A stretch of DNA of 60,078 bases from a virus: the IMG/VR virus record IMGVR_UViG_3300044475_000064, positions 1 to 60,078 of that record; one strand, written 5' to 3'. Shown piece by piece: positions 26,438 to 41,990 of the stretch (within the stretch, counting starts at the first letter, position 1; each line of letters opens with the position of its first letter). A model generated the notes under the pieces. That model saw only the letters and a program-made list of their open reading frames with translations. It did not search any database and was not told the origin of the DNA. Both the position numbers and the translations under genes were made by a program.

Positions 26438-26460
26438 AAGCCGCATTTATTTTCGGCTTT
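26438..26460 (-). terminator. Weak hairpin between the endolysin and the tRNA cluster (attenuator or processing site?)
   Basis: Stem AAAGCCG/CGGCTTT with a 9-nt loop and an AT-rich tail. Confidence 0.35.
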
Positions 26461-26464
26461 ATTA

Positions 26465-26998: not shown

Positions 26999-27001
26999 AA
27001 C

Positions 27002-27280
27002 TTAACCTCCCCACTTATCAACATTCTTCTTGAGGTATTCCTCAATAAATGTACTACCCAATATACCCAATCCACTTGCGATACCAACTAAAGCCAGTGG
27101 AGGAATATTGGGCATTTGTAATAAAACGACACCAGCAATCAACGAAGTTGCTGCTCCTAGAATTGTCCGACCGATAATCAGACGAGCCGACAAAGGCTCT
27201 TTGGTGACGAGAAGTTTACTCATACCGATCAACCCACCGATGACGATAATCATTAAAATACTTTTCTCATGCTCTTGCAT
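27002..27280 (-). CDS. Putative holin (92 aa, three hydrophobic segments)
   Basis: Segments ILMIIVIGGLIGM, ILGAATSLIAGVVLL and LALVGIASGLGILG with a charged C-terminus. RBS AGGAG. It is immediately upstream of the endolysin. Confidence 0.65.
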   Translation of the reverse strand: MQEHEKSILMIIVIGGLIGMSKLLVTKEPLSARLIIGRTILGAATSLIAGVVLLQMPNIPPLALVGIASGLGILGSTFIEEYLKKNVDKWGG

Positions 27281-27379: not shown

Positions 27380-27406
27380 AAAAACCCCACCGAAGTGAGG
27401 TTTTTT
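27380..27406. terminator. Rho-independent terminator directly after the giant gene
   Basis: On the minus strand the stem is CCTCAC/GTGGGG (one G:U pair) with loop TTCG, followed by T5. T6 lies on the plus side. Confidence 0.65.
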
Positions 27407-27408
27407 GC

Positions 27409-30400
27409 TTAATTGTAGATAGATGGTGACTGATCCTCAACCAAACGATCACGCAGCTTGTTGTTATAGCGCATACCACCTACGGCGTTGTCAGCACCTT
27501 TATCACGGTTTTTACGTGATTGAGAAATACTGCGAGGTGTGATCTTCTGCTCAGGATTCTTCTCATTGAACTTGTCAATTTTCTCAGCAAGTTTATCGAG
27601 CTTCTTCTCATCACCCTCTTGGTTGGCCTTATAGTAATCATCCATGATGCTCTTGCGCTCTTTGATGATCGTTTGTTGCATGTTGAAGCTGGCGTTATTG
27701 GTCTGATACTGTTCCGCAATACCTGCAGGTGTAAAACCAAGTGCCTGTTTGATCACATCAGAAGTGGTCACATCCGTAACAGTATCACCACGCATATTTT
27801 TCGCGCCTTCCGTTTCATAGCGATAGGCTTTCATCGGATCTTTAAGCATCTTCGGCATCATGGTCTCAATACCACGATAAACCTCACCCTTGCCGATATA
27901 ACTCAAACCACGGGCAAATTGAGCACCAATTGCAGGTACAGCACCAAGCAACTGGCTTTGCCAAAATTGTAAAGCTTCCTCACCTTCTTTCTCGCTGTCA
28001 GGTGATCTAAACCAAAGGTCAGCCATACCAACCGAAGCGGACAATGATGTGCCTGTTACATAACCAGGTACGCCGTGCAGTGCCAATCCTGCCAATTTTG
28101 GACCAATTGATTTTATCATTGCTTTTTTAAGTTCTTCTTTTGGATCTTCACCGTCATCCATGAACATCCCTGCCATCACCATCGCAATACCAAACAACCA
28201 TGTACCTGTGATACCTGCGTTCAACATCATCATGCCTGTAATACCAGCAAGCTGAGAGAATGCCTCCTTACGGACTTCCTTAGTCTCACCATTCAATGCT
28301 TGGTGAGTATCACGGAATAGGCGATAGAGCATGTTGATTTGGAAATTACGGAATACGAGTAAGATCTTCATCGTGTCATTGTGCATCAGTCGAGGGCGCG
28401 ATGTATTTGAATAATCAAAATGCGTTTTCCAAGTCAGATCGCCTGCTTTTGTCACTGCAGCATCATGGCTAAGACCTTTTTTGCGAGCAAGACGGTATGC
28501 AGCAAGGAATGTGACCTCACGGTTTAGACGTTCAGCATGATGGAAGCCCCAAGAAATGATTTTCATTGCACGCTCACGGGCAGCACTGTACTCAACACCA
28601 GTCTCACCAACACCTGCAAGGTCATGCCCTTGTGTACGCTCGATCACGCCTGCCTCATAACCGTCAGCCATTGCCTTGCGTTCTTCTGCAGTCAAACCAC
28701 TTGAACGCTCTGCAAAACCCTTACCTTTGGTGAAGTCAACGAGCGCATTGGTCAGCTCCTTACCTGCACGAGCAATACCATTCAGACCGCCTGCATATGC
28801 GCCAAGGATCGGCACACCCATGATCGGTGTCTGAAATAAGTTCATGATCGCAGCTTTTGGACTACCTGCGAGATACCATACGAATGCGAAACTTGATGCC
28901 CATTGAGCCAATGCGCCACCAGTCGGTGACATCACAAACTTATGGCGCTTCTCCATTTCATTAACGATCAAGCTGCTACGCTTAGGATTCTTGGTTTCAC
29001 GAGCATCATCCCGTGCTTGATCAAGTGCATCCTCTAGATCCATGCTGTGCGCCATACGTGCCAACTGGTGAGATCCGTGGAACATATGACTACCGAAAGC
29101 ACGGACGGCATCGGCGTTATAGCCTTCACGCCCTTTACGATGGATACGAGCCTTACGCACTGACATATCAGGCAATGACTCAAGATAACGTTGCCATACT
29201 TCATCCTTGACCTGCTCAGCGTTCGGCAGATCAGCAAGAATATCTTCAACATCGGCAACAAAATTTGGATCTACTGCTTTTCGCTCAGCTGCCCCATCAA
29301 TCAAAGCACCTTCTTCAACTTTATAATTTGCATCCTTTCTCATTTCCTCAGCAAAACGGCGCTGTTCGGTCGGATCTTCAAAGCGAGAGAACGATACTAC
29401 TTCCCCAGTCTTGGCATCGCGTACGGTGACAAATAGCGATCCAAACCGTGCTAATGGGAAATATGGTCCTTGGAGACGCTGCGTTTCAAACTGCTTGCGT
29501 AGGCGCGTCATACGAGCCTTACGATTCCATGCAATTTTAGTCTTAGCATTATTAAGAGCACGGTCAGCTGCAGCAATTGCATCATCACGCTCCTGTCCTT
29601 GCAATCCCTCATCAGTGATGCGCTCCATTTCACGGCCATGCTCACGCTCAGCTTTTTTGATACGGACATTGATTGCCTTTTCCATATTAGCAAGCAGTAT
29701 CTCATCAAAGGCATCAGCGAGATCCGTGTACGTGTCACGCACCTTTTTATAGATCTCTTTTGCTTCTGCAGACAATGGATCAAAACGTTCTTTCAGTACG
29801 TCATAGGCTTCTTCACGCTTGTCATCAAGTTCCTGTTTCAAGGTCAGTTCAGCTCTGAGATTTGCATTCAGATTAGGATTGGCCAAAGATCTTTTTTCTT
29901 GTGGAGTCATCAAGCTTTGGAACGGCATGGACGGATCAACCTGGTTTAAGGTCGATTCATGCATAATATCCATCAGCTCACGGTTTTCGTCCTTGTTCTT
30001 GATGCGATATTTCAACCACTCTTGAGCAACGGCATCGGTCTTAGCGTGCCATTTATTGCGCATGGTATCCATTTTGTCCTTGACGCGCAGATAAACCTTG
30101 GCAGACGGTAGATCACTCGCCATTTCATTGAGCATCTGGCGTAATGGAATCAAACCTAGCGCACCGTTTGTCATCAACTTGGTTAGTTTGTCAGATGGTA
30201 ATTTTTTGGCTTCATCCCACCACTGTTTAAGCTTCATTGCATACTCATCTTCTGAAACAGGGCCGAGATCATCATCAGCACGGCTGAAACGGATGTCAGG
30301 ATTGGTCGGATCGAATGCTCCAGTGTTATCAGTGGCAGATTTAATTTGCTCAGAATCAAAAACAGATAACGTTTGATGACCATCATCGGAAAAAATAATA

Positions 30401-33400
30401 GCGTCATATCCAAGTTCTTTAAGCTTAGGTACTAAATCGTTTGCCCAATGCTTATTTTTAAACTCATGTTTTGTTGAGTTCCAATCGAAATACCCATCCT
30501 TAGCCTGGTTCACAACACTCTGACCAAAGCGGCTGCTTGCTTGGATACCTGCCAAAACTTTCAAACCATGATCAGTATTTAGATCAAGTGGATTTTCAGA
30601 ACGCACATAGATCGGCTTAATACGAGCATCAGGATAAATTGGATTGATGTCTCCATAATCCATCATGTCCTGAATATCACGAGCGCTTAGGCGAGATCCA
30701 TCCTGACGGTTCACGTACTCATTACCATCAATTTCATAGATATTACCGTCATTGTCTTGATACACTGGATCGCTACGCTTACGCCCACCACCAGCACCTT
30801 GCGCATAACGATCAGCAATATCCATATCGTCAGTGGTATGAATCAGACCACCTGCCTTATCCTTATCCCATTGTGACCAGTTATCTCGTGTGCCGTGATA
30901 GCGAATTTGTGGTTTCCCATCCTCATCCACCACCTTACTGTCACCAAACCACTTTTTAAATTCAGGTGTGTTTGTCTGATCTTCACGGCTAAAACGAGAG
31001 CCTGATCCATGACTCGCATTGAAAGCAATCAGATAATTTTCATAGACTGTTTTCTCCTGATCCACGATCTTGAATCCTGCATCCGCATCAGGAATATAAC
31101 CCTCTTTGGTCTTGTCACCATTGCCACCAATAACAACGCCATCCTTACCAAGCAGCCAAACATAGCTATCAGTTTTCGGCGCAAAGCGCTTATCAAAACC
31201 AGTTCTTCGGCTATATGGCTGATCAGAATATTCGCTTATTGATAAAGCATTGACGCTTACACCCTCTCTAAAGCCATCTGTCAAAATTGGTTCACGGTTA
31301 GATTCACCACCTCTGAAATCAACATGGATGCTCTTATATTTTTTAAAGAACTGTTTTTTAGTGAGTGGCTTATTTGATGTGTCAGCCTTGCTGAAACGGC
31401 GCATACCATTTGCATCGCGATTGCCAAGCGTATTGACCATACGCTCAGCCAAGGCGAGTACATCATTCGCATTCAGATTGAGATTTAAGCCAAGCTTATC
31501 CACTGCCCATGCTTTGACGGCGGCAACGATGCGATTGACAAGAGTTTGCACACCTGGTCGCTTGTTCTGCGCACGAGCTGCAACGGTGATCAGATACGGA
31601 AGATACTCATCCTGACGAGCAGCTGCATCTGTCTCACGCTCAGCAAGGCGTTTTGCCTCAAGTGCGATAGGATCTTTAGCAGCCACCAAGCGATCAAACT
31701 GATCCATCAGGTTCTTGTAGGCAGTCGGCTTCATCACGCCCTGCATACCAGCGTGACCACCGAGCTCATGCAGAAACACTGGAACAATGGTGTCAGGTGT
31801 TAGAGCGTTTGCAACGAGCGTTACGTTCCCATCCTGCGCATAACCCTCGACACCTGCAATACGGAAACTGTCATCAATGCTCAGAATGCCTTGATCCTCA
31901 AGACGAGTGATCACGTCCTTGCCGAAACGCTCAATCAGACGATTGCGGACATCGGCAACAGTTATGCCAGTACCCTTCCGATCACCTTGGCTGAATAGTA
32001 GTTTTTCCTGCTGTGCGATGATGCGAGCACGATCACCTTCTGATTTAGGATCATAGGTTTTGATCTTTAATCCTGCATCACGTAGTACCTGCAGCGCATC
32101 TTTATCCATACCCTTTGGCACAACAGCGGTATTGAACTCGCTGAATTGAACGGCACGCTGAGCCTTCGCCTCAAAGTACGCCGTTGGTAGGTTTGCAAGG
32201 TAACTGGTCAGGTCGGCAATGATCTTGCGTGACTCAGGTGTGACCTTAAATGCCTCACGAATGCCTTTCTGCCCCTCCGCGATTGCAGATCCAGCATCAT
32301 TGAGATAGCCCCAACCGTTCGTGTCGTATTTGTAGAATGGTTTGAGACGTTCAAGCGCATCCTCAAATACCTTGGACGATTCCTCTTTTAGCTTCTCCAT
32401 TTCAGCCTCAGTGACGATCTGATCACGGCGAGATTGGATGTCTTTGAGCGTTTTCATTTCATTGGCGTAAGCAGAGCGTGCGCTACCTGCACCATAGAAT
32501 GTGCCCTCACCTGCCTGTAGCTGCTGAGTCATTTCAGACACGACGTTCTCAAGCGTGTAAGGCAGATATTTTTTGTTTCCTGCATTGGTAAAGCCTTTAA
32601 ATAAGGTCTTACCAGTCACCATCGAATTGAATTTATCGGTTGCCCATTTCTCGAAAGCTGCGCGTGTTTTTTCATTACGCATCTTTTCCGAAAGATCGCT
32701 TCTCAATTGAGCATAATCGTAACCACCACTTTTGCGGTAGTTGTCTGCTTTCATAGCTAAGTCATCAAGTGCATACGGCTTGAGCGTACCATCCTCGTTG
32801 TAATAACGTGCCTTTGCACGAGCCACGCCTTTTTGATTGATCTCACGCATAACCTCCTTTGCATCATCAGGCAAAGCAGGATCAATTGGCTTCTCGTACT
32901 CAGCGATGCGAGACTCAAAATACTTTTTAGCAATGGCAGCAAATTTTGGATCTTGTGGCCATGAGAAGCGAGATCCTTCCAGTTTTGCAGCGTTCTTGAT
33001 GTATGGATTGACCTTAGCCTGTTTCAATTTTGGTGCTTTGCCGATCTCATTGAGATATGCAAGCTGCATTGCATCTGATCGAACAAAGTTTTCAGCTCCG
33101 TCTGTACCACTCGCCTCATCGAGACTCGGCAAGCGAAGTCCGTTTGCATTCTGTTCAAGCTCGCTGAGCAGCGCATTAAATTTCTTCTTGTCTAGCTCAT
33201 AGCTTGCCCGTGGCTGACGTGGAGAATAAATATCTGCATCGAACGTGCGGATCTTTGAATCCTCAAGAAGCTTCGGATCTGCCAATAGGGTGACTTCACC
33301 AAAGCCTGAGAAGTCAGACACATCAGAACGAGCGACGGCGATAGATGGTGCAGCAAGCCCACCTAGATCGTTCGCAGCCAAAATGTTCGATGCGCTCAGG

Positions 33401-36400
33401 TTGTGAGCGACAAATAGATTTTTAGGTTGTTCATCAGTCTTTGAAAACTGAGCTTTCTCACCGTTCAGATTAACAATTTCTGAATATCCGTACTTATCCT
33501 TGGTCACAACCGCATCGTAACCAGCCCTTTTGATCGCTGCAGACAGCGCCTTACCTGTCTTGCCGTCAAACATTTCCGACAAGTCTTTTTTCCACCCACT
33601 GCTGTCAGTGGATTTATGCTCAAGCACAAGCGGATTTTTGAACGAGATCACACCGTACTGCCAACCAGGACTGTTCATGGCTGACATATCATCAGTCGCA
33701 ATGTTCATGTACTCGCCTGCAGGTTCTAAATCCTGCCCAAAGTCCATGCCTTGTGGATAGTTCTTGCTGCTGACTGTGTTGCGAGAGAAATACGCATTAA
33801 TTGGCTTACCAGTCTCAGCATCTTTCGGATCTGTGAGATCAGCGCGGCTGAAACGAATATCAGGATTGGTCGGATCGAATGCACCAGTGTTGTCAGTGGC
33901 GGATTTGATTTGCTCAGGACTGAATGTCACATAGATTGTTGAAGGTTTATAAATATCCTTGGCAACCTTTTCAGCTCGCTTTAGATCTGCAGCATCTAAT
34001 GAGTCAACCTCGACATATTCACCATCAAGCTTAATATAACTTCCATAATCAATAACATTAGAAAGAATAGCACCATCTTTTCCATCGTTTTTTGCACGAT
34101 GAGCCATAAGGTTCGTATCACTTACACCAAACAAGGCCTCGTCAATTTCAAAATCTTGAAGGTTATGATGTTCCGCAAATGACTTTGCGTCTTTCTCAGA
34201 ATCGAAAATAAATTGGCCATTATCACCAATAAATGTATCAAAACCATCTACAGTGATTTGATAAGCTTTTTTTTCTCCTTGGATTGTTCCATTCCACATA
34301 TTTCCACGGTAGTTGGCAAGTTGTGGATCTCTAATATTTAGGAATACTGGATAAATTCCAGGTGATGCCTCATCGCTATCATACTCATCACTTGCTTTTG
34401 CTTCGTCAATAGATCCTGCATAACTAACTGCGACATCACGATTTGCCGCAAAAAATGAAGATCCAGGCGGTGTCTCAGAGAAGCGAGGCTCAGCGTCGTT
34501 ATCAAATTCAGAAAAACCAGCCTGTTTCGCTCCATGATAAACCACCAACGGCTCACCATTCTCATCAACCACCTGTGATGCGTTGGAAGCATCGTTTTCC
34601 CAATCACCAAACCAGTTTTTAAATGACGGCGTGCGTACCTGCAACCATTGCTGCTCATTCAAATTGGTTAGTTTTCCGTTAGGCGCTTTCATCCATTGGT
34701 CAGTGCCTTCGTACTGTTTGCGCACATCATTTATCTCAGAATTTTGATTGTCCGCACGGCTGAAACGTAACTTCTTGTCAAACCAATAATCCTCTAGGAA
34801 CTTGCCAAGGCTTTCAGGATTCGTACCTGAGAATAGTAGCTGCCCGTCTTGGCGCTCGATGCGAATGCGACCTTTCTTCTCAACGATACGAACGCCTGTG
34901 TCCTTGCCCTTATTGGATAGTATCGCGCCGTCAGAATTGACTGAGCGACCATATTGCTGTGCTACATCATCGTACTTCTGAAATTTGTTTTCAGTATTGG
35001 ATTCTTCGGCTGGTTTCGCCTTAGTAGTATGCTTCGCTTTCGGCGTAGGTGTATCTATAAGTCGCATTTCACTTAACGGCGTACCAACATCCACACCCTT
35101 ACGAGTGAACAAAATAGAGCCATCATCCAAAATTTTACGATCAAAACGTGGCTGAATTAACTGACGTGTAAGTGGGCGTAATTTTATGCCTTTTTGGATA
35201 AGGATTTGATCAATCGCATCCATACCAATAAAGTCAGTCACATATTCACGACCTGTAATGTCGCCAGTACCAGGCTTATAGTTTTCCTTGCCTGATACTG
35301 CATCGCCACGCATCTGAACTAAGATGCCTTTGTTAGCACCCTGACCCATTGCGAGATCAATATTATCGGCAACATACAATTGGGATGTGTTGCCGCCGCC
35401 ATTAGTCAATGTATTGCGTGTTAGATCATATAAGCCTTCCGCATCCATTTCACGGTAAACAGTTTTGCCAATAGGTGTTGTTTTTCCTGTGAATGGTCCA
35501 ACATTATAATTTTTTGGCATGGATGGACGTTCGGTCTTAGCCGCTTCCTTTTTAGCCATAGTGTCTTTAACAACTAGTGTTTTTACGGCTTCCTGTGCCT
35601 CAGCTAGAGTGTCGTAGTATCCATATTCATTACCATTATTCTCATCACGATACAGTGTAAAAATAGGATACGGCTTATCATTACGCATACGAGACTCATC
35701 AACAATGATCATACCGTTTGATGCAATCCACGTTTTATCACGAGTATCATGTGTCGACCATGTGATTTTTGTCTCATCACTGATCTTCTTCTCGATTTCC
35801 TTGTTTTTACGATACTCAATGTAACGTTTGAGGTCAGCTTTCTCATTGAGCAGGCTTTCTTTCATGCGCTCAGCTTTATTTACAGCACGTTTCTCATGAG
35901 CTTTAGGATCATTAATAATTGCATCCTGCTCAGCAATGTTCTGATCAATTCTAGGAAAATCTGCTTGTAGCTTCTCAATAGATATATGACCTTTGCTTTG
36001 GTCATAGTCTTTGATATTTCTTTCAAAAGAAATCTGATCCTTAGATTTTTTAGCAACAGGCGTAGTCTTAGGCTGACTGGTATCTACAGTCGAACTAGGG
36101 AACTCATGAGCAGTCACAACTAGGTCACGAATAGGCGCATTCAGGCGAATGACTTTCACATCCTCACCAGTTTCACGCGCAGCCATCCATTGATGATGAC
36201 CATCAAGAACATGGTTATCACTTGAGATCAGGATTGATCGGTTGCCACCTTCATAATTTTTAGCCTTATCAACCTTCTCCTGCGAGAACTCGGCTTGTGT
36301 CGGTTTTAGGCTGTCAGCGGTAACTGTTTCCTCCTGGTGTGAGATACCGCGTGCATTCATAAAGTTGACCATTGCGCCACGGTGTTCGGCTTTGATCTGT

Positions 36401-39400
36401 GGCATTTCTGCACGAGGAATACCGATAGTGCCTGACTGGTCAGAAAATTCAGACCAACCGTCACCAATATCCTTGCCTTTGATGTCCTGTATGGTATCAG
36501 GTGTTTTTGTTTCAGCAGCATTTGATTTTATTTCAATCATGCCGCTTGATTTTGCCATATCAATGTTAGTGTGAGTCTTTCCTTTCTGAAACCAATCACC
36601 ACGCCCAGTCCATTCATTTGATGCTGTTTTTTCCCAAAATAAGCCACGTTCTTCCGAGAACTCACTTGGGCGGAAGCGAGTTCCAATTGGTTTGTTGAGG
36701 TAGCTCTCCGCTTGATTTTCAAGTGCTTTCTGCTGCACTTCAAGTTGCAATTTTTTAATATCACCAAGGTATTCTCGCGTGATCGCTTTTACTTCTTCAT
36801 CCGTACTTAGAATAATTTGTTTCTGACGTTTTTCTTCTTCAAGGAGACCTTGCTCTTTCGCTTTTTTGTGCGCATCTACTGCGTCGTTATAGCGCTTAAT
36901 TGCATTATCTCTTTTTTCCTGTAGCGAATGTGTCTTAGGCTTGCCATACTTACTTAAATATCTCTCGTAGGCACTTTCAAGTGTCTTGCCGCGAGCATAC
37001 TCATCGGGAGAATGCCCGATTGACCAGGTGTTAGATTCTTTAGAGATATTCCACTTATCTTTTCCAGTATACAACTTGCTATCAGGATAGCCGCTAGGAA
37101 CATATCCATTGTAACCATCCTTGTCCTTACCAAATGCATCAGCTTCTTTTTGCATTTCAGCTTGTTCAGTAAAGTATTTATTTAGTTGTTTTTGTGTTGT
37201 ACTAGGTAACTCATTAAATGACTTTGTGCCCATGTCTTTTGCAGAAGCCTGAGCCTTACCTTGTGCAGTAGAATAGCCAATAGTTTGAAGGATTCTAATG
37301 CGGTAAATAGGGTCTAAACCATCCCAAGCAACATCACTATTCGTCACCTCTGTTGTGACAGATACAGTATTTGACGGCGTAGGTTCAGGCGATTTCAGAT
37401 TCACATACTGAGATCCATCCCATTCCTGCAGATTGCTCATTTCAATTTGATCGTTGGTGCTTCTTGACGCTTCATTCAATGCATCTTGAACATCCTTCGC
37501 GCCGATCATAATCCAGCCGTACTGACCTTTGTATCGGTAGCTCTTTAGACCATCTGCAGCCAATGGCTTATCTGTGGTTTTCTGCTCAACCTTTTGCTCT
37601 ACAGGCTTAGCCTTCCCAGTCTCATATGCATCAACAATACGTTTTACATCAGCAAATACCTGTGACCGTGTACGACCTGACTTTTTGATCTCAGCCTGAA
37701 TCAATCGCGTTTTCTGTGATGGATTATTGATATGAGCATCAAGGAAAAGCTCATCAAATGACGGCGTTTTCGATGCTTCTTTTTTTGTTTCTGCATCGTT
37801 ACGTGCTACGCCGTGCCAAACATCATCGGCTGTTTTCACACCAATAACAGTGACACTTCCATCATCATTTTTTTGAACGTTATAGTTTGGATTGCTCAGT
37901 GCAGCCTGAATTGAATCCTCCTTACGGTAAGTCAGTCGATCTGTCTTATTATCACGGACGTACTCAGCTACTTGATCACGCGCACCCTCATCCATACTAC
38001 GGCTGATCTCTGACATACCTTGCTTGATCTGCTCAGCGGTGCTTGATAACTCCGTTGTTTTTTCAGCTGCAGCTTGCTTTTTAGCAAGCTTATTGATTGC
38101 TGCTTCAACCTTACGGCGTTCGGCTGTAAGGATCTTATCCCAACCGCCATTAGTTTTTGCCAAAGTTGCAAGGTACTTCATGCGAGCACGAAGTTCAGCA
38201 TCAGTCATACGACCGAGTGTTTTCTCGGCTGGCTCTATCTCAACGGACGTAATAGGTGGCGTATCGACTGATTGCCCCTCAGTGGTATCAAAGGTCGATA
38301 GGTTCGGATCTTCTGCAGCCTTTGCAGGTTGTGTCGGCTGATAACCAAAATCAGTTAAATCAGGTACGTTCGATGCTGCTTCTGCATTTCCTGACGGAAC
38401 ATCCGTTCCGCTATCTCCTTGTACTGCTGCAATTCGCGGATCTTCTTGGATTGCTCGATTTGAGATAGTCTGATCATCCGTTGAAATTCCATCGGTGGTC
38501 TGTACATCATTTACTTGCTCCACTGTAGTCGTATCAGTAACAGGCTGTGCAAAATTCACATCACCCTGACCAAATTGCATCGGCGTACCATCTTGATCAC
38601 GCGCAAAAACATCGCCGTTCTCATATCCATCTACTGTAACCGTATAGACGGCATTAGGATCTGCTTTAGGCGAGATCTGTGTAACTGTACCAGGTTCACC
38701 GAGCCATTGATCTTGAGAAGCTTGCACGGCGTTACGCTCAGCTTCGATCTGAGCATCAAGGTTATCACCACCGATTGCTCGCTCAATTGGACCAGTTCTG
38801 CGAGCAGGTTGCTGCTCAGGCTGAATTGGCTGTTCAGGTGCAATGTCCTGCGTTGGTGTGTCTGTTCCTGCCTGTGGATCATCCTGTATAGACTCGTCGA
38901 TCTGTGGCGGAATGTTTGTACGATGTCCAGCTGCACCGAGACCGCCGCCCATAATACTACCAAGCACCGCACCACCTGCAGCTTGGTTTGCAACACCCTT
39001 TGTCAATGAACGGTTAGGATCTGCCTCTTGAACAGCATAGTTTTGAGCGACCTGTTGCAATGCGCTCTGTGGCATTTCCTCAAGTAAACCCTCAGCCACG
39101 GCAGCGCTTGCCGCGCTCTTGAATCGGCTTTTCGTACCCTCTGTAATAACCTTGGCAATAGCACGGTCTCCCATACCACCAAAGATACCAGTTCCAATAC
39201 CTGCCAATACAAATGCTTTAGTCGCTGCGTCCTCAGCAATTAGGTTACGTGCCTGCTCAAAGCTCTTACCATCTGCTATGAGTGCTTTCATCGCATCCGA
39301 GTTTTTAAGCATATCCTCAGACATGCTATTGATCTCTTTGCGGACATCAATTGCAGCATGAGCACCACCAAAACCACCCTCAATCAAGCCACCTGCAATC

Positions 39401-40746
39401 GTCGCCGTCGCCGCAGCTTTCTTTGCAGCGACTTCACGAGTTGCCCCAGTTGTGATTGCTTTTTTAAATGCACCTTTGGCCAACGCTAAAGATCCACCCA
39501 TAGACATCGCCATTTCAGGCGTGCTCTCTACGATACCAGCGTAGTAAGCTCGTGGATCTTTCCATGCTTCACCAAGACCCCAACTTGTTGCAGTTGTGCC
39601 ATCATCAAGCTTATCACCTGGTTCAACAACCCAAAGTTTTTTACGTGCTTCTGTAGTCTTAGTAGATAGATTCCCTTCATATTTTTTCTTAGCTTCGTCA
39701 ATAATCTGCTGAGACGTTTTGCCAGTAAAATACTGATCAATTTTATCCATAGCACCAACAAGATGCTTTACACCAGGAATGCGATTGGTGATCTCGTATG
39801 CGGCTTCCGCACTACTGCTCAAGCCTGTAAGTAGCAAATTACCAGTATCAGACAAAAAGCTAGGTTCTTCTTTATTTTTTGGATTTTTCTGAGTTGGTTG
39901 CTGTGCAATTTTGATCGGTTTAGCACCTGTAAATGGAATGAACTCATCCAATCCCTGCTCTTGAGCAGCTTGCATACGCGCCATTTCAGTTGCAGACAAT
40001 GGGCGATAACGGCCACCATCGGTATTTTCCTGTTTTGATTGTGTCGCTTGTGGCTGCGCATTAGATGCAAGGCTCTGACCTGATCCAATCGAACTATAAT
40101 AGCCCTTTACATTATTAATATATGGGATTGTCTCTTGTGGACGTGGTAGATAGGCTTTCCAGTCACCACCCTGCTCACGAGAACGGCGAACGGCTTTATC
40201 GACATTACCCTCACCTGCATTGTACGCAGCAAGCGCCTTATCGACATCGCCGTTATAGCGAGACATCATTGCCTCAAATTTACCGAGACCAAGACGTACA
40301 TTCTCACGCACCGAGCCATCACGAAGCGGCTTAATACCATAACCAGGTTTAGCACCTGTATCGGGCATGACCTGCATAAATCCGAATGCGCCCACTGGCG
40401 ATCTAGCGTTTGGATTCCCTGCACTTTCCTGAGCACCAATCGCAGCAATCCAGTGCATTTGTTCAGGTGAGTACCCTGCAAATTCATTAGGATTATTTTG
40501 GATAAATCCCATTGACCCCTGTAGTTTTTTATCAAAACCTACACCGCCGCTTGCAGCCTCGCGTTGGCTGTTGAGATCAAGAACACGCGCATCAAACTGC
40601 TGATTGACGTTCTTGCGGCGTGATTCAGCATTAATGCGATCTTGCTCAAACTGCTTTTTGAGATCGTCAGGCAATCCATAGGATGCAGAATCAGCTTCCT
40701 GTAGTGCGGCTTCAAGTGGAGACTGTTGCAGTCCTTTACGATCCAT
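27409..40746 (-). CDS. Giant polyvalent virion/ejection protein (4,445 aa): SLT lytic transglycosylase, Gly-zipper hydrophobic region, ParB-like domain, two ART-like modules, PLxRFG domain, C-terminal TM cluster
   Basis: Uninterrupted ORF with RBS GAGGA. Motifs:
- AIGAQESAGNPNARSPVGAFGFMQVMP (SLT)
- LKPTQAEF..VLDGHHQWMAARETG (ParB-like)
- two copies of RFSR.D..FK.WFGD..VVDE.G.P..YHG .. EQIKSATDNTGAFDPTNPDIRFSRAD
- GPYFPLARFG (PLxRFG)
- hydrophobic AGITGMMMLNAGITGTWLFGIAMVMAGMF. Confidence 0.85.
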   Translation of the reverse strand: MDRKGLQQSPLEAALQEADSASYGLPDDLKKQFEQDRINAESRRKNVNQQFDARVLDLNSQREAASGGVGFDKKLQGSMGFIQNNPNEFAGYSPEQMHWIAAIGAQESAGNPNARSPVGAFGFMQVMPDTGAKPGYGIKPLRDGSVRENVRLGLGKFEAMMSRYNGDVDKALAAYNAGEGNVDKAVRRSREQGGDWKAYLPRPQETIPYINNVKGYYSSIGSGQSLASNAQPQATQSKQENTDGGRYRPLSATEMARMQAAQEQGLDEFIPFTGAKPIKIAQQPTQKNPKNKEEPSFLSDTGNLLLTGLSSSAEAAYEITNRIPGVKHLVGAMDKIDQYFTGKTSQQIIDEAKKKYEGNLSTKTTEARKKLWVVEPGDKLDDGTTATSWGLGEAWKDPRAYYAGIVESTPEMAMSMGGSLALAKGAFKKAITTGATREVAAKKAAATATIAGGLIEGGFGGAHAAIDVRKEINSMSEDMLKNSDAMKALIADGKSFEQARNLIAEDAATKAFVLAGIGTGIFGGMGDRAIAKVITEGTKSRFKSAASAAVAEGLLEEMPQSALQQVAQNYAVQEADPNRSLTKGVANQAAGGAVLGSIMGGGLGAAGHRTNIPPQIDESIQDDPQAGTDTPTQDIAPEQPIQPEQQPARRTGPIERAIGGDNLDAQIEAERNAVQASQDQWLGEPGTVTQISPKADPNAVYTVTVDGYENGDVFARDQDGTPMQFGQGDVNFAQPVTDTTTVEQVNDVQTTDGISTDDQTISNRAIQEDPRIAAVQGDSGTDVPSGNAEAASNVPDLTDFGYQPTQPAKAAEDPNLSTFDTTEGQSVDTPPITSVEIEPAEKTLGRMTDAELRARMKYLATLAKTNGGWDKILTAERRKVEAAINKLAKKQAAAEKTTELSSTAEQIKQGMSEISRSMDEGARDQVAEYVRDNKTDRLTYRKEDSIQAALSNPNYNVQKNDDGSVTVIGVKTADDVWHGVARNDAETKKEASKTPSFDELFLDAHINNPSQKTRLIQAEIKKSGRTRSQVFADVKRIVDAYETGKAKPVEQKVEQKTTDKPLAADGLKSYRYKGQYGWIMIGAKDVQDALNEASRSTNDQIEMSNLQEWDGSQYVNLKSPEPTPSNTVSVTTEVTNSDVAWDGLDPIYRIRILQTIGYSTAQGKAQASAKDMGTKSFNELPSTTQKQLNKYFTEQAEMQKEADAFGKDKDGYNGYVPSGYPDSKLYTGKDKWNISKESNTWSIGHSPDEYARGKTLESAYERYLSKYGKPKTHSLQEKRDNAIKRYNDAVDAHKKAKEQGLLEEEKRQKQIILSTDEEVKAITREYLGDIKKLQLEVQQKALENQAESYLNKPIGTRFRPSEFSEERGLFWEKTASNEWTGRGDWFQKGKTHTNIDMAKSSGMIEIKSNAAETKTPDTIQDIKGKDIGDGWSEFSDQSGTIGIPRAEMPQIKAEHRGAMVNFMNARGISHQEETVTADSLKPTQAEFSQEKVDKAKNYEGGNRSILISSDNHVLDGHHQWMAARETGEDVKVIRLNAPIRDLVVTAHEFPSSTVDTSQPKTTPVAKKSKDQISFERNIKDYDQSKGHISIEKLQADFPRIDQNIAEQDAIINDPKAHEKRAVNKAERMKESLLNEKADLKRYIEYRKNKEIEKKISDETKITWSTHDTRDKTWIASNGMIIVDESRMRNDKPYPIFTLYRDENNGNEYGYYDTLAEAQEAVKTLVVKDTMAKKEAAKTERPSMPKNYNVGPFTGKTTPIGKTVYREMDAEGLYDLTRNTLTNGGGNTSQLYVADNIDLAMGQGANKGILVQMRGDAVSGKENYKPGTGDITGREYVTDFIGMDAIDQILIQKGIKLRPLTRQLIQPRFDRKILDDGSILFTRKGVDVGTPLSEMRLIDTPTPKAKHTTKAKPAEESNTENKFQKYDDVAQQYGRSVNSDGAILSNKGKDTGVRIVEKKGRIRIERQDGQLLFSGTNPESLGKFLEDYWFDKKLRFSRADNQNSEINDVRKQYEGTDQWMKAPNGKLTNLNEQQWLQVRTPSFKNWFGDWENDASNASQVVDENGEPLVVYHGAKQAGFSEFDNDAEPRFSETPPGSSFFAANRDVAVSYAGSIDEAKASDEYDSDEASPGIYPVFLNIRDPQLANYRGNMWNGTIQGEKKAYQITVDGFDTFIGDNGQFIFDSEKDAKSFAEHHNLQDFEIDEALFGVSDTNLMAHRAKNDGKDGAILSNVIDYGSYIKLDGEYVEVDSLDAADLKRAEKVAKDIYKPSTIYVTFSPEQIKSATDNTGAFDPTNPDIRFSRADLTDPKDAETGKPINAYFSRNTVSSKNYPQGMDFGQDLEPAGEYMNIATDDMSAMNSPGWQYGVISFKNPLVLEHKSTDSSGWKKDLSEMFDGKTGKALSAAIKRAGYDAVVTKDKYGYSEIVNLNGEKAQFSKTDEQPKNLFVAHNLSASNILAANDLGGLAAPSIAVARSDVSDFSGFGEVTLLADPKLLEDSKIRTFDADIYSPRQPRASYELDKKKFNALLSELEQNANGLRLPSLDEASGTDGAENFVRSDAMQLAYLNEIGKAPKLKQAKVNPYIKNAAKLEGSRFSWPQDPKFAAIAKKYFESRIAEYEKPIDPALPDDAKEVMREINQKGVARAKARYYNEDGTLKPYALDDLAMKADNYRKSGGYDYAQLRSDLSEKMRNEKTRAAFEKWATDKFNSMVTGKTLFKGFTNAGNKKYLPYTLENVVSEMTQQLQAGEGTFYGAGSARSAYANEMKTLKDIQSRRDQIVTEAEMEKLKEESSKVFEDALERLKPFYKYDTNGWGYLNDAGSAIAEGQKGIREAFKVTPESRKIIADLTSYLANLPTAYFEAKAQRAVQFSEFNTAVVPKGMDKDALQVLRDAGLKIKTYDPKSEGDRARIIAQQEKLLFSQGDRKGTGITVADVRNRLIERFGKDVITRLEDQGILSIDDSFRIAGVEGYAQDGNVTLVANALTPDTIVPVFLHELGGHAGMQGVMKPTAYKNLMDQFDRLVAAKDPIALEAKRLAERETDAAARQDEYLPYLITVAARAQNKRPGVQTLVNRIVAAVKAWAVDKLGLNLNLNANDVLALAERMVNTLGNRDANGMRRFSKADTSNKPLTKKQFFKKYKSIHVDFRGGESNREPILTDGFREGVSVNALSISEYSDQPYSRRTGFDKRFAPKTDSYVWLLGKDGVVIGGNGDKTKEGYIPDADAGFKIVDQEKTVYENYLIAFNASHGSGSRFSREDQTNTPEFKKWFGDSKVVDEDGKPQIRYHGTRDNWSQWDKDKAGGLIHTTDDMDIADRYAQGAGGGRKRSDPVYQDNDGNIYEIDGNEYVNRQDGSRLSARDIQDMMDYGDINPIYPDARIKPIYVRSENPLDLNTDHGLKVLAGIQASSRFGQSVVNQAKDGYFDWNSTKHEFKNKHWANDLVPKLKELGYDAIIFSDDGHQTLSVFDSEQIKSATDNTGAFDPTNPDIRFSRADDDLGPVSEDEYAMKLKQWWDEAKKLPSDKLTKLMTNGALGLIPLRQMLNEMASDLPSAKVYLRVKDKMDTMRNKWHAKTDAVAQEWLKYRIKNKDENRELMDIMHESTLNQVDPSMPFQSLMTPQEKRSLANPNLNANLRAELTLKQELDDKREEAYDVLKERFDPLSAEAKEIYKKVRDTYTDLADAFDEILLANMEKAINVRIKKAEREHGREMERITDEGLQGQERDDAIAAADRALNNAKTKIAWNRKARMTRLRKQFETQRLQGPYFPLARFGSLFVTVRDAKTGEVVSFSRFEDPTEQRRFAEEMRKDANYKVEEGALIDGAAERKAVDPNFVADVEDILADLPNAEQVKDEVWQRYLESLPDMSVRKARIHRKGREGYNADAVRAFGSHMFHGSHQLARMAHSMDLEDALDQARDDARETKNPKRSSLIVNEMEKRHKFVMSPTGGALAQWASSFAFVWYLAGSPKAAIMNLFQTPIMGVPILGAYAGGLNGIARAGKELTNALVDFTKGKGFAERSSGLTAEERKAMADGYEAGVIERTQGHDLAGVGETGVEYSAARERAMKIISWGFHHAERLNREVTFLAAYRLARKKGLSHDAAVTKAGDLTWKTHFDYSNTSRPRLMHNDTMKILLVFRNFQINMLYRLFRDTHQALNGETKEVRKEAFSQLAGITGMMMLNAGITGTWLFGIAMVMAGMFMDDGEDPKEELKKAMIKSIGPKLAGLALHGVPGYVTGTSLSASVGMADLWFRSPDSEKEGEEALQFWQSQLLGAVPAIGAQFARGLSYIGKGEVYRGIETMMPKMLKDPMKAYRYETEGAKNMRGDTVTDVTTSDVIKQALGFTPAGIAEQYQTNNASFNMQQTIIKERKSIMDDYYKANQEGDEKKLDKLAEKIDKFNEKNPEQKITPRSISQSRKNRDKGADNAVGGMRYNNKLRDRLVEDQSPSIYN
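30277..30353. repeat. Intragenic 77-nt repeat, copy 1 (about 91 percent identical to 33841..33917)
   Basis: Aligned by eye with 7 mismatches in 77 nt. It encodes EQIKSATDNTGAFDPTNPDIRFSRAD at the end of ART-like module 2. Confidence 0.85.
33841..33917. repeat. Intragenic 77-nt repeat, copy 2
   Basis: Encodes the same 26-aa peptide at the end of ART-like module 1. Confidence 0.85.
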
Positions 40747-40763
40747 AAGAACATCCTCAATAA

Positions 40764-41990
40764 TTATCTGTAAACGACTGTACCTGTTTTGGTATCCATA
40801 TACGGCGTTAGCCCTTTAGACTGCTGACCGCCGTTAGGAAATGGATTTGCGACCTCACCACTATTCTGATTACTCGCACCATCCACCATCGCAATGTAGT
40901 CTTTTGCTTGTTTGATTTTCTCAGCACTGCTAAGTTTACCAAAAGACATGTCAATTTCCGATAATGTTTTAATTGTATCTTCGATACGAGTAGCCATATT
41001 TTTTGAATTATTTTGCACGCCTAATAGTGCAGGAACATACGCACGGATCTGTTCCTCGGTATAATTATTTTTACGCAAATAAGCCGCTGCAGATTCAGCC
41101 TGAGCAACTTTATCATTACCTTTTGCACCAGTTGTACCATTAGCACCATCAAGTTGCGACTTGGTAACTGCGGCGCTTCTCTGTTGAGTTATTGTATTTG
41201 CAGACTGGTTATTATCTTTAGCAAGTCCATAGCCTTGCTGAATAGCCATTTTTGTCTGTTCTTGCTTCCAGTCTCGCTCATCTTTGATTTGCTGAGCTTT
41301 AATTGCCTGTGCCTGCTTCTGTTGATCGTAAGCATATTCCACGATCTTGTCAGGCATAGCGTTGTTACGGATAAAACCGATCAGCTCGTTCTGATTATTG
41401 AATGTCAACGACTGTGGCTTACCTGCAGAATCAATAAAATCAAGCTTTGCACCGCCTGTTAGTTGGCCTTTAGCATCTTTTAGTTCAGTGACAGACTTAA
41501 ATTTGTAACTACCACCATCACCGACAATGCTGTTAGACACATTGAGAATATCCTCAATCGCAGGACCAAGATTTTGATAATCACCCATACTGGCCATACG
41601 GATTGCACCAGCCGAAGCCTCTGTGAGTTGCTTCGCCTGTTTGGTCTCCATAAACTTACCAAGCATGTCTGCAGCTTCAACCTTACCTGATGAGATCAGG
41701 TGTTGCTGCTGCTTTGGAATCGTAGTGTTGTAATAGTAGTCCAACACTTTTTTATTATCACCGCCGTATTTAGTCTGAGCATCGTTGATGCCGATCTGCC
41801 CAATGCGTTCAACCTCTGCCTGAATGTCAGAATTACGTTGCTTTTCTGCATAATCCTGCTCAGCTTGCTTCACCTGCATATCACGCAATTTATTTTGACT
41901 TTTTGCATTCTGAATGCCTTGGTATGCCTGAGCACCTTGCGATACACCACTCAGAAATGAACCTAGCCCGATACCAAAATTACCAGCCAT
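40764..41990 (-). CDS. Putative internal virion/ejection protein (408 aa)
   Basis: Gln/Ala/Lys-rich helical sequence with RBS GAGGTG. It is immediately upstream of the giant gene. Function is inferred from synteny only. Confidence 0.65.
   Translation of the reverse strand: MAGNFGIGLGSFLSGVSQGAQAYQGIQNAKSQNKLRDMQVKQAEQDYAEKQRNSDIQAEVERIGQIGINDAQTKYGGDNKKVLDYYYNTTIPKQQQHLISSGKVEAADMLGKFMETKQAKQLTEASAGAIRMASMGDYQNLGPAIEDILNVSNSIVGDGGSYKFKSVTELKDAKGQLTGGAKLDFIDSAGKPQSLTFNNQNELIGFIRNNAMPDKIVEYAYDQQKQAQAIKAQQIKDERDWKQEQTKMAIQQGYGLAKDNNQSANTITQQRSAAVTKSQLDGANGTTGAKGNDKVAQAESAAAYLRKNNYTEEQIRAYVPALLGVQNNSKNMATRIEDTIKTLSEIDMSFGKLSSAEKIKQAKDYIAMVDGASNQNSGEVANPFPNGGQQSKGLTPYMDTKTGTVVYR

Follow-up and report, generated by a model that had tools for sequence, protein, structure and literature searches.

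Polyvalent proteins, found in phages and conjugative elements, are described as early effectors embedded in virions (PMC5512222; PMC9503650). As described by Iyer, Burroughs, Anand, de Souza and Aravind in 2017, they combine many unrelated effector domains in one chain, are encoded in a late or virion gene context and are predicted to be injected with the DNA and to act early (PMC5512222). The giant-protein arrangement studied here is already known from phage JC1, in which a 4,515-aa homologue (gp69) takes up 22.1% of the genome. Mass spectrometry found gp69 in JC1 virions purified on CsCl, together with gp67 and gp68, which are encoded just upstream (PMC9144972). Giants of the Bcep22/PEp14 type [Bcep22 gp75 (4,602 aa), JC1 gp69 (4,515 aa), Pavtok gp27 (5,007 aa), Parlo gp81 (3,764 aa) and the PLxRFG protein of ZX1 (3,867 aa)] are encoded at the same place as the protein studied here, between two or three virion-protein genes and the lysis genes, and likewise take up about 22% of the genome. 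DarB and DdrB of phage P1 are also packaged in the capsid and delivered with the DNA against host defence, and DdrB carries a domain of the ParB/Srx superfamily (PMC5512222); P1 is, however, a myovirus with a different packaging context. Another giant single chain carried inside a podophage capsid is the virion RNA polymerase gp50 of phage N4 (about 3,500 aa). According to the proposed model, its subdomains of 250-300 aa exit like beads on a string through a channel of about 35 Å in the tail; the ejection proteins of N4 lack a peptidoglycan hydrolase (PMC13434306).

The window analysed here is a stretch of 60,078 nucleotides, positions 1 to 60,078 of the IMG/VR record IMGVR_UViG_3300044475_000064. 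Bases 1-127 are identical to bases 59952-60078, a circular-assembly overlap, and the genome is therefore circular with a length of 59,951 bp. Its major capsid protein is 86% identical to those of PEp14, Stean and Pavtok, and by sequence the phage is classified as a PEp14/Pavtok-like podophage of the PEp14/Bcep22 type. The window contains a gene for a protein of 4,445 aa, which belongs to the class named 'PLxRFG domain-containing protein' at NCBI. This protein is probably a giant virion protein of a PEp14/Bcep22-type podophage and a polyvalent protein as Iyer et al. (2017) define the term. Such a protein is recognised by at least two distinct effector-type domains and by a late or virion gene context. 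We found an SLT domain, two ART-PolyVal domains, a PBECR5 domain and an LPD39 domain in the chain, and virion structural PHROG families and lysis genes on its flanks. It thus combines ART-PolyVal, PBECR5 and LPD39, as defined by Iyer et al., with a lysozyme-like cell-wall domain, and shares with their polyvalent proteins the many unrelated domains per chain and the late/virion context (PMC5512222). An earlier reading of the letters alone (the sequence-only reading) had proposed a polyvalent architecture, which is supported by the profile matches to these three families defined for polyvalent proteins. The likeness to N4 gp50 is an analogy of mechanism only: the window protein has its own SLT domain, no homology to gp50 was found and no RNA-polymerase domain is present.

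The giant gene and its neighbourhood

The giant gene (27409-40746, minus strand) starts with ATG, is translated without an internal stop and covers 22.2% of the circular genome. The ATG is preceded, at a distance of 7 nt, by a Shine-Dalgarno site (GAGGA), and an intrinsic-terminator-like hairpin with an 11-bp stem and a T-run (27380-27405, minus strand) directly follows the stop codon, at the place where a terminator is annotated in Bcep22. A single uninterrupted ORF of about 22% of the genome, as had been read from the sequence, is thereby confirmed. Three proteins of 408, 254 and 450 aa are encoded upstream (40764-44112, minus strand), as shown by PHROG profiles and neighbour order. Two of them match phrog_9667 and phrog_8003 ('virion structural protein') and the 254-aa protein has no family match. 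They had been put forward as three internal-protein candidates. Three proteins do precede the giant gene, but the 450-aa protein looks fibre-like and may not be an internal protein, because a Peptidase_S74 fibre-chaperone domain was found in it by profile search. Downstream, and on the same strand, lie the lysis genes (26465-27280), which encode a 92-aa holin (27002-27280; PF04550, E = 4e-27) and a 177-aa Amidase_3 endolysin (26465-26998; PF01520, E = 1e-20) of the PHROG families phrog_175 and phrog_435; the ORF was thus correctly placed upstream of a lysis cassette. The gene order GNAT, virion protein, hypothetical protein, virion protein, giant protein, lysis genes is shared with Pavtok, ZX1 and Parlo, and Bcep22 follows it in broad outline.

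The unusual length of the ORF and a mosaic of GC3 values between its modules (0.31-0.50) raise the concern of an assembly chimera or of several genes fused by sequencing error, for which we found no other support. The exact 4,445-aa sequence is recorded on four contigs, among them JGI 3300044259, which is the window itself, and Logan SRR35899580. These contigs come from two or more assemblies made separately (JGI and Logan), which makes a chimera unlikely. Both ends of the protein are collinear with homologues of 3,764-5,007 aa from isolated, sequenced phages, and the frame has no stop and keeps its lack of cysteine over the whole length (0 Cys codons, versus 92 and 303 in the two alternative frames of this strand). 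We regard such an artefact as next to impossible. The giant gene closes the structural operon, has a Shine-Dalgarno site and a terminator-like hairpin, and would be expressed late. From the mass spectrometry of JC1 gp69 (PMC9144972) we infer by analogy that its product is packed inside the capsid and delivered with the virion.

The conserved ends of the giant protein

Comparison of the domain order with related phages revealed conserved ends, a variable middle and a shared gene slot. In BLASTP searches the giant protein was collinear at both ends with its homologues in Pavtok, ZX1 and Parlo, and only aa 246-730, 835-899, 1428-1561 and 3505-4444 aligned with Pavtok. The alignment with Bcep22 comprised the N-terminal region, the ParB/Srx-like module and the module M4 only, and the tail gave no match. 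An N-terminal SLT domain, a Gly-rich region and a motif of about 60 aa are common to the window protein and the Bcep22/PEp14-type giants. The ParB/Srx module is also shared with the relatives, but no match was detected in Parlo. A module of the M4 type is common to the window protein, ZX1, Parlo and Bcep22, and an LPD39 domain followed by a PLxRFG tail (46-64% identical) to the window protein, Pavtok, ZX1 and Parlo, whereas Bcep22 has LPD38/LPD3 in place of LPD39.

The SLT lytic transglycosylase domain predicted from the sequence was recovered at aa 99-193 (40168-40452, minus strand) as a match to PF01464 (E = 9e-19; 67.6 bits, cut-off 21.3), and the region has PDB sequence matches to Slt70-type enzymes (E = 1.7e-10). 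A conserved Gly/Ala-rich region follows at aa 296-715 (38602-39861, minus strand; phrog_938, E = 4e-50), with BLASTP identities of 38-51% to Pavtok, ZX1 and Parlo and, over a longer alignment, of 35% to Bcep22. Hydropathy (Kyte-Doolittle) and motif scans located the expected Gly-zipper hydrophobic segments within aa 444-607 (38926-39417): three moderately hydrophobic, Gly-zipper-like segments are present at aa 444-468, 503-530 and 585-607, and 21 small-xxx-small-xxx-small motifs occur in aa 380-640. An acidic low-complexity spacer (aa 641-834; net charge -24) precedes the motif of about 60 aa (aa 835-899; 38050-38244, minus strand), which is kept in all relatives and is 53-56% identical to Pavtok and Bcep22 (BLASTP). 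The N-terminal part would act on the envelope, with the SLT domain cutting peptidoglycan and the Gly-rich hydrophobic segments possibly inserting into the membrane.

At the other end, LPD39 (aa 3519-3720; 29587-30192, minus strand; PF18858, E = 9e-57) holds the same position before the tail as in Pavtok, ZX1 and Parlo. The tail itself is a PLxRFG 'tail-700' domain (aa 3760-4432; 27451-29469, minus strand) that covers positions 1-680 of 681 of NCBIfam NF032893 (E = 4e-224; 746 bits, cut-off 100). The PLxRFG motif seen in the sequence lies at the start of this domain as PLARFG (aa 3764-3769; 29440-29457). Hydrophobic segments were found by hydropathy scan at aa 3950-3992, 4162-4196 and 4266-4284, and the proposed C-terminal transmembrane cluster corresponds to one strongly hydrophobic, TM-like segment within them (aa 4172-4196; 28159-28233). 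Membrane insertion is uncertain, since the segments are moderately hydrophobic and one has a Kyte-Doolittle mean above 1.5. The stretch aa 3505-4444 is 64% identical to Pavtok (BLASTP). LPD39 and the PLxRFG tail appear to be the constant part of the family and probably serve in packaging or membrane anchoring.

The best PHROG match of the giant protein is phrog_10089 'DarB-like antirestriction' (1561 bits), and the homologues in Pavtok, Parlo and Bcep22 are so annotated and carry methylase and SNF2/ResIII helicase domains. RefSeq as well as PHROGs gives homologues this label. The protein could accordingly be read as a packaged methyltransferase and helicase that shields incoming DNA from type I restriction, like P1 DarB. 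The phrog_10089 match rests on three stretches, however, of which the best is the C-terminal tail (aa 3499-4444). No methyltransferase family was found by Pfam in the giant protein at E <= 0.1 for the whole protein or at E <= 1 for tiles, whereas the same tests found Eco57I or MTS matches in the relatives. ResIII, SNF2 and Helicase_C, all present in Pavtok, ZX1, Parlo and Bcep22, were found neither in the whole protein nor in its tiles, and the sole helicase- or restriction-related match at E <= 1 was a weak, sub-threshold one to HSDR_N (E = 0.047). The NCBIfam search lists no methyltransferase or helicase domain either, and the positions of the methylase and helicase in the relatives are held here by ART, PBECR5 and other modules. 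The mechanism behind the 'DarB-like' label is thus contradicted, the methylase and helicase domains of P1 DarB being absent, and a DarB-type antirestriction function is highly improbable.

Cargo modules of the variable middle

In the relatives, the middle of the protein consists of an Eco57I/MTS-type methylase and a SNF2/ResIII helicase together with LPD37, LPD3 or LPD38; in the window protein it contains two ART-PolyVal domains, PBECR5, modules M2 and M5, and other modules instead. Profile searches with the whole protein and with overlapping tiles placed SLT, both ART-PolyVal domains, PBECR5 and LPD39 above the Pfam cut-offs; PBECR5 and LPD39 had not been among the modules read directly from the sequence. 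More than half of the length had been left without a name, and about half is still unnamed after the searches (the stretches concerned include aa 900-1414, 1566-1724 and 2577-2918), although several stretches are recurrent modules elsewhere. An unnamed module at aa about 1725-1935 (34942-35574, minus strand) recurs in many other giant proteins, including other PLxRFG giants. An exhaustive HMMER search with aa 1566-2060 gave 3,526 matches in all, and in dozens of the 150 listed, mostly proteins of 2-4 kaa, the aa 1725-1935 stretch was matched at 36-57% identity. This module has no Pfam or PDB match.

The ParB-like domain claimed at DGHHQW was found to be a ParB/sulfiredoxin-fold module (aa 1420-1565; 36052-36489, minus strand), for which a first protein search returned 112 homologues. 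In its AF2 model (pLDDT 88.8) the top 13 Foldseek matches in the PDB are all ParB, Noc, Atu1540 or sulfiredoxin (E = 6e-3 to 0.45, probability 0.63-1.0). Matches in BFVD are phage 'ParB/Sulfiredoxin' proteins (E = 4e-12 to about 4e-9; TMq about 0.65, rmsd 1.2-3.1 Å). The fold thus supports the claim, but the window copy matches no ParB Pfam model (ParBc, ParBc_2 or ddrB-ParB) at E <= 1, and in lacking a match to ddrB-ParB it differs from the set of Iyer et al. Among 31 aligned sequences, four relatives match ParBc_2 below threshold (best E = 0.0024), and a precomputed PF18763 match is present, anywhere along the length, in 4 of the 112 homologues. We therefore assign the module at the level of the modelled fold only. 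Canonical ParB/DUF262 proteins have a DGxxR motif with Arg. In the DGHHQ[WY] motif of this module the corresponding position is Gln, invariant in all 31 sequences, and because of this exchange the module may be non-catalytic. Fifteen columns are invariant across the 31 sequences, and other invariant Arg residues exist (R42 and R89, alignment numbering).

Two ART-like modules had been suspected, and both are PF18760 ART-PolyVal domains. The first (aa 2061-2290; 33877-34566, minus strand) has a large insert and covers positions 1-140 of 140 of the model (E = 3e-19 for the tile, 1.5e-31 for the whole protein), and the second (aa about 3262-3478; 30313-30963, minus strand) matches in two stretches (E = 2e-19). 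Both copies have in common an N-terminal TPxFKxWFGD motif and a C-terminal tail of 26 aa. Between them lies module M3 (aa 2440-2918; 31993-33429, minus strand), a PBECR5 domain with an extension of about 340 aa. The PBECR5 nuclease-like domain itself was located at aa 2433-2576 (PF18814, E = 3e-18). Five metagenomic homologues (P0113, P0114, P0116, P0119 and P0120) have alignments that fall within or extend over aa 2423-3128, in four cases as a block from aa 2423-2442 onwards, and the alignments of P0114, P0116 and P0120 stop at aa 2901-2941. These alignments indicate that the extension travels with the PBECR5 domain.

Module M4 (aa 2919-3125; 31372-31992, minus strand) was identified by alignment as a candidate zincin-like peptidase. 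It contains HELGGH (HExxxH), shared with four close homologues, and the same alignment column holds HExxH (HELFH or HEAFH) in ZX1, Parlo and Bcep22. Zincin peptidases have the HExxH spacing, and with HExxxH instead M4 may be non-catalytic. The AF2 model (pLDDT 81) shows three strands followed by the motif helix. Pfam searches with M4 gave only single-member matches at E > 0.05 (DUF6782 and WLM), the PDB profile search gave no relevant match, and no Foldseek match was significant (best E 0.09; a putative Zn-peptidase at rank 7 with probability 0.16).

The variable middle would represent the cargo that reaches the cytoplasm with the DNA, made up of two predicted ADP-ribosyltransferases, the ParB/Srx-fold module as an NTP-binding or nuclease-like component, an RNase-like PBECR5 domain, the HExxxH module and several unnamed modules. 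Such cargo would presumably modify or cut host macromolecules, and thereby blunt defence or take over the cell. The N-terminal SLT domain followed by hydrophobic segments does, however, also resemble internal core proteins that form a trans-envelope channel. T7 gp16 likewise has an N-terminal transglycosylase, and if the window protein were in essence such a structural ejectosome or conduit protein, its middle modules could be spacers or decayed relics without an effector role, as the altered motifs in the ParB/Srx module (Gln for Arg) and in M4 (HExxxH) might suggest. Against this, the cargo scores well above the Pfam gathering thresholds (110 bits for ART-PolyVal, 58-67 bits for PBECR5), the ParB/Srx-like family has its 15 invariant columns and an 80-nt repeat described below differs by synonymous changes only, which together argue for purifying selection rather than decay. 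A spacer of 13 kb would also be expensive for the phage, since it would use up 22% of a genome whose size is limited by headful packaging. We consider a purely structural protein very unlikely and retain the reading as a polyvalent effector protein.

Junction motifs and absence of cysteine

The cargo block (30274-34767, minus strand) is bounded by seven motifs matching the regular expression [RKQL]FS[RKQ]x[DE]. These lie on the minus strand at 34750-34767, 33838-33855, 33433-33450, 31981-31998, 31381-31398, 30979-30996 and 30274-30291 (aa 1995, 2299, 2434, 2918, 3118, 3252 and 3487, respectively); in 2,000 shuffles the mean was 0.06 and the maximum 2. At the DNA level, a 17-nt unit occurs in five copies in the block. 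An 80-nt repeat (family D1) encoding EQIKSATDNTGAFDPTNPDIRFSRAD was found at 30274-30353 and 33838-33917 (minus strand). The two copies are 91% identical in DNA and all differences are synonymous, since the encoded peptides are identical. FS-type motifs are present at or near corresponding junctions in the homologues P0113 and P0115-P0118, of which three have the strict pattern and the others looser FS motifs. In contrast to the seven motifs of the window protein, the relatives have none or one outside the tail domain.

The giant protein contains no cysteine (0 of 4,445 residues, versus 1.1% in the other proteins of the window). All 15 PLxRFG giants examined lack cysteine: the window protein, four phage homologues and ten metagenomic proteins. 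The three upstream proteins (408, 254 and 450 aa) have no Cys, and because the capsid and other structural proteins also lack it, the absence is not specific to ejected proteins. The text of PMC5512222 does not mention 'linker', 'cysteine', 'transmembrane' or 'Bcep22', and hence that study describes neither the junction motif nor the lack of cysteine nor the constant frame formed by the N- and C-terminal parts of this subfamily. The protein may be threaded through the tail as loosely joined modules, like the beads on a string of N4. Module sizes of about 95-480 aa, a junction predicted to be disordered and the lack of cysteine would fit this, and the last would avoid disulfide trapping in the oxidising periplasm.

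The junctions might also be cleaved, in which case the protein would be a polyprotein cut at its seven junctions after packaging or ejection, possibly by its own M4, to free separate effectors. The motif always lies between modules (7 versus 0.06 expected), a motif of the same kind is found close to or at the equivalent joints of homologous modules in other proteins, and the synonymous-only change in the 80-nt repeat preserves the peptide. The junction after M4 is predicted to be disordered (AF2, pLDDT < 50). M4 aligns with the HExxH modules of the relatives and adjoins ART modules and the tail in several, though not all, other PLxRFG giants, and autoproteolytic release by metallopeptidase domains has been proposed for polyvalent proteins (Iyer et al.; PMC5512222). 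On the other hand, none of the Pfam, PDB-sequence and Foldseek searches linked M4 significantly to a peptidase, and its HExxxH spacing is unlike the HExxH of zincins. Outside the tail domain, Pavtok lacks the junction motif altogether, and ZX1, Parlo and Bcep22 each show no more than one copy; as these last three have the HExxH module, motif and module do not go together across the family. A flexible joint, or a recombination scar common to a module pool, could explain the motif equally well. We consider a polyprotein unlikely. The more specific proposal, in which the junctions are specific processing sites of a virion-delivered polyprotein, the atypical HExxxH module possibly is the cutter and cysteine avoidance is a signature of the oxidising periplasm, is slightly less likely still. 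If it were true, six or seven separate effectors would be freed, including two ADP-ribosyltransferases, a PBECR5 RNase and several unnamed enzymes, and the arrangement would be a cleavable, recombination-friendly cassette system for exchanging anti-host effectors between phages.

For the polyvalent giant itself, the methylase and SNF2-helicase cargo of the relatives would have been exchanged for the ART/PBECR set in this phage, with modules from a pool on which other PLxRFG giants also draw. Ten other PLxRFG giants contain the same modules in different arrangements, and in nine of these ten the tail is the last aligned segment.

An intact open reading frame and its domains

The single open reading frame noticed in the sequence-only reading lies at 27409..40746 (-) exactly as placed there and consists of 4,445 codons, starting with ATG and without an internal stop. 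A GAGGA Shine-Dalgarno sequence is located 7 nt 5' of the ATG, and a hairpin with an 11-bp stem followed by a T-run (27405-27380, -) starts 4 nt past the stop codon. The encoded protein, hereafter the giant, has a mass of roughly 490 kDa as estimated from its 4,445 residues. Bases 1-127 of the window are repeated exactly and directly as bases 59952-60078. The simplest explanation of this 127-bp repeat is k-mer overlap in a circular assembly, in which case the contig is a complete genome; accounting for the overlap, the genome measures 59,951 bp and the giant takes up 22.2% of it. An identical 4,445-aa product is encoded on four contigs, including JGI 3300044259 contig Ga0456009_000101 (the window) and Logan SRR35899580. 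The giant's frame contains no TGT or TGC codons, compared to 92 and 303 in the two alternative frames of that strand. The frame-specific absence of cysteine codons and the identical copies from JGI and Logan data make an assembly chimera or a frameshift very unlikely.

Profile searches confirmed the SLT module (aa 99-193, E = 9e-19), and both of the ART-like modules that had been read by eye gave significant ART-PolyVal matches (aa 2061-2290 and about aa 3262-3478). A recent whole-domain duplication as origin of the two ARTs was rejected, because the cores have diverged and only an N-terminal motif and a 26-aa tail are alike. Additional matches were a PBECR5 domain (aa 2433-2576, E = 3e-18) and an LPD39 domain (aa 3519-3720, E = 9e-57). 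The PLxRFG motif is present as PLARFG at aa 3764-3769, within the NCBIfam PLxRFG 'tail-700' domain (aa 3760-4432; 746 bits with a cut-off of 100). The anticipated Gly-zipper segments were found as three Gly-rich, moderately hydrophobic segments within aa 296-715, a region that matches phrog_938 (E = 4e-50). The proposed C-terminal transmembrane cluster was retained in part: aa 4172-4196 is the sole strongly hydrophobic segment, and the segments at aa 3950-3992 and 4266-4284 are weaker. Pfam searches with ten overlapping 600-aa tiles (E <= 1) identified no families beyond the whole-protein set and no ParBc, MPTase or further LPD match, and a PDB sequence search with the whole giant found SLT alone. 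About 2,000 residues have no assigned fold, the unnamed modules lying at aa 900-1414, 1566-1724, 1725-1935, 1905-1999, 2305-2439, 2577-2918 and 3124-3257, and the earlier remark that over half of the length carries no nameable motif still applies to about half of it.

The ParB-like domain proposed from its motifs (aa 1420-1565) was recovered as a fold and not as a Pfam family. No Pfam ParB match was obtained even at E <= 1, ParBc_2 was touched, below threshold, by 4 of the 31 aligned homologues, and a PDB sequence search with the module profile gave nothing credible. An AlphaFold model based on the 31-homologue alignment reached a pLDDT of 88.8. ParB, Noc, Atu1540 and sulfiredoxin structures account for all of the model's 13 best PDB matches, with modest E-values, and its BFVD matches are phage 'ParB/Sulfiredoxin' proteins (E = 4e-12 to about 4e-9, TM about 0.65). 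Given the confident model and these matches, the predicted ParB/sulfiredoxin (ParB/Srx) fold is considered sound. The Gln of the DGHHQW motif is invariant among the 31 aligned sequences; canonical ParB and DUF262 proteins have a DGxxR motif, with Arg at the position of this Gln. In many metagenomic matches (P0039-P0107, homologues of this module) it co-occurs with a Mu gp29-type portal domain (PF06074), which fits a location in the capsid interior; if so, a phage-interior module would be attached to the portal itself.

A constant frame with exchanged cargo

A megablast search with the giant's gene against 50,697 phage records gave no match and the phage itself is absent from this collection; relatives were therefore sought at the protein level. 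The major capsid protein shares 86% identity with that of the Erwinia phages PEp14, Stean and Pavtok, and 69-77% with that of Itty13, Skulduggery, Parlo and ZX1. On the minus strand, a GNAT gene (141 aa) is followed by genes for a 450-aa virion protein (phrog_8003), a 254-aa protein and a 408-aa virion protein (phrog_9667); then come the giant, the terminator-like hairpin, a holin (PF04550) and an Amidase_3 endolysin. The order around the giant is the same in Pavtok (giant of 5,007 aa), ZX1 (3,867 aa) and Parlo (3,764 aa) and broadly alike in Bcep22 (4,602 aa), with extra genes in between. The homologue in phage JC1 (gp69) is 4,515 aa long and occupies 22.1% of the genome, and both this protein and the products of the genes just upstream were seen by mass spectrometry in CsCl-purified virions (PMC9144972). 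One giant gene covering ~22% of the genome is thus an already described hallmark of this phage group.

In BLASTP comparisons with the homologues from Pavtok, ZX1, Parlo and Bcep22, the giant aligns only in the Gly-rich region, in a motif at aa 835-899 (60 aa), in the ParB/Srx module and over its C-terminal 940 residues, which are 64% identical to Pavtok. The middle parts of these four homologues contain Eco57I/MTS methylase and SNF2/ResIII helicase domains, whereas neither is detectable in the giant by whole-protein or tiled Pfam searches. The best PHROG of the giant is phrog_10089, labelled 'DarB-like antirestriction'. As the basis of this label, methylase plus helicase, is undetectable, the label should not be applied to the giant: the name is carried by the conserved tail and misleads here, and function is not to be transferred from the database name. 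Among phages with closely related capsids (86% identical capsid protein), the cargo is methylase plus helicase in some and of the ART and RNase type in others, and this swap on a constant frame offers a tractable comparison of packaged effectors against host defences.

An exhaustive HMMER search with aa 1566-2060 identified 3,526 proteins, many of 2-7 kaa, and resolved recurrent modules at about aa 1725-1935, at aa 1905-2003 and at the ART N-terminus. Unnamed widespread modules, such as aa 1725-1935 which occurs in many large proteins, are targets in the search for new effector domains. Ten PLxRFG-tailed proteins among the matches listed contain the modules of the giant in other orders, with the tail as last aligned segment in nine of them. 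These modules are part of a common cargo pool. Scanning IMG/VR with the cargo block, delimited by the junction motif described below, yielded 232 relatives with ART-level similarity only (25-59%), none with the same cargo order. The kind of protein is already known from Bcep22 gp75, the PLxRFG giants and polyvalent proteins more generally, and the giant is a further member in which the cargo set has been exchanged. Adjacent modules have sharply different GC3 values (0.31-0.50; 30271-35034, -), about 0.31-0.34 in both ARTs and cargo module M5 and 0.45-0.50 in cargo modules M2, M3 (aa 2440-2918, PBECR5 with an extension) and M4 and in aa 1905-1999. Such a mosaic would fit modules that differ in origin or age.

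In module M4 (aa 2919-3125) the motif reads HELGGH, as opposed to HExxH in the modules of ZX1, Parlo and Bcep22 that align with it. In the M4 model, the helix with this motif comes after three strands. The structure was predicted from an alignment of 6 sequences, without phage-record sequences. A profile search of a 5.8-billion-protein set added one extra fragment only; this set apparently holds such giants mostly as fragments, and the alignment is accordingly shallow. Foldseek of the model against PDB gave no significant match, comparison with peptidases (PDB profile, Pfam and Foldseek) gave none either, and the profile matched PDB sequences only through spurious TALE repeats. Without a significant Foldseek match, M4 as a peptidase is a motif-level hypothesis. 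M4 is also shared, at about 50% identity, with Acinetobacter 'plasmids' of 55-60 kb (H58, H63-H67), typed as non-mobilizable, which encode PLxRFG proteins and resemble phage-plasmids, or phage genomes of this group that were filed wrongly.

Probable delivery, module junctions and absence of cysteine

The interpretation as a polyvalent protein is supported: its domains are identified, its N- and C-terminal frame is constant, its gene lies in the late operon, and a homologous protein has been detected in virions. A capsid-packed, ejected polyvalent protein is the best-supported reading. The giant would pass through the tail as loosely linked modules, in analogy to what is proposed for the virion RNA polymerase of N4 (PMC13434306). 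SLT would open the peptidoglycan and the hydrophobic Gly-rich and C-terminal segments could engage membranes. The ARTs, PBECR5, ParB/Srx and the unnamed modules would then act on host macromolecules early in infection, in line with the early-effector role of polyvalent proteins (PMC5512222; PMC9503650).

The motif [RKQL]FS[RKQ]x[DE] occurs seven times between aa 1995 and 3487, each time at a module boundary (0.06 copies expected, maximum 2 in 2,000 shuffles). The closest M3 and M4 homologues have FS-type motifs at or near the matching joints, three of them strict and the rest looser. Outside the tail domain, in contrast, Pavtok has no copy of the motif, and ZX1, Parlo and Bcep22 have one at most. 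Its frequency in a set of 150 further large proteins is at background level (0.08 per 1,000 aa), which rejects it as a general feature of polyvalent proteins. At the DNA level, a 17-nt unit is present in five copies, and an 80-nt repeat (30274-30353 and 33838-33917) shows synonymous differences only. The junction after M4 is predicted to be disordered. The junctions may serve for cleavage, as flexible joints or as joints of recombination; a giant that processes itself as a polyprotein is considered improbable.

Cysteine is absent from the giant and from the three upstream proteins (408, 254 and 450 aa; 27409-44112, -), as well as from the giants of Pavtok, ZX1, Parlo and Bcep22 (21,685 residues including the window's giant) and from ten metagenomic PLxRFG giants, so that all 15 PLxRFG giants examined lack it. 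Its average is 1.1% in the other proteins of the phage and 0.15% in other large polyvalent proteins pooled. Avoidance of cysteine fits transit through the oxidising periplasm. The absence is not exclusive to the giant, since the capsid protein has no cysteine either. Iyer et al. 2017 (PMC5512222) contains neither 'linker' nor 'cysteine' and the N4 paper (PMC13434306) does not contain 'cysteine'; judged by these two papers, the junction motif, the HExxxH module and the zero cysteine count are apparently undescribed. All three are simple testable features, and the junction motif and cysteine count bear on envelope crossing and processing of the giant.

Neighbouring genes

Three proteins encoded upstream had been taken as candidate internal proteins. 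For one of these, the 450-aa virion structural protein (42760-44112, -), this is questioned by a Peptidase_S74 (endosialidase chaperone) domain at its aa 350-398. As Peptidase_S74 is typical of self-cleaving fibre or spike proteins, the 450-aa protein may not be an internal or ejection protein. The virion gene block also includes a GNAT acetyltransferase (141 aa) and a NinI-like calcineurin-type phosphoesterase (251 aa) at 44072-45240 (-). As the GNAT is conserved at this place in Pavtok, ZX1, Parlo and Bcep22, it may be packaged as well.

The lysis region (26156-27280, -) encodes a family-2 holin and an Amidase_3 endolysin, followed by three tRNA genes, and no spanin-like ORF was visible in it. 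It differs from the lysis genes of Pavtok, ZX1 and Parlo, which are endolysin, holin, a hypothetical protein and Rz. ARAGORN reported a 79-nt 'tRNA-Phe' with anticodon AAA at position 37 (26318-26396, -), adjoining a normal tRNA-Phe(GAA) and tRNA-Met(CAT); with such a length and anticodon, it may be a miscall or else an atypical tRNA. A 588-aa ORF (23733-25499, +) contains an internal repeat, seen by eye, in which …EPDPF[LM]KEYL.P…W[IE][DV]VP… occurs twice, and is followed by an ASCH-domain protein at 25503-25910.
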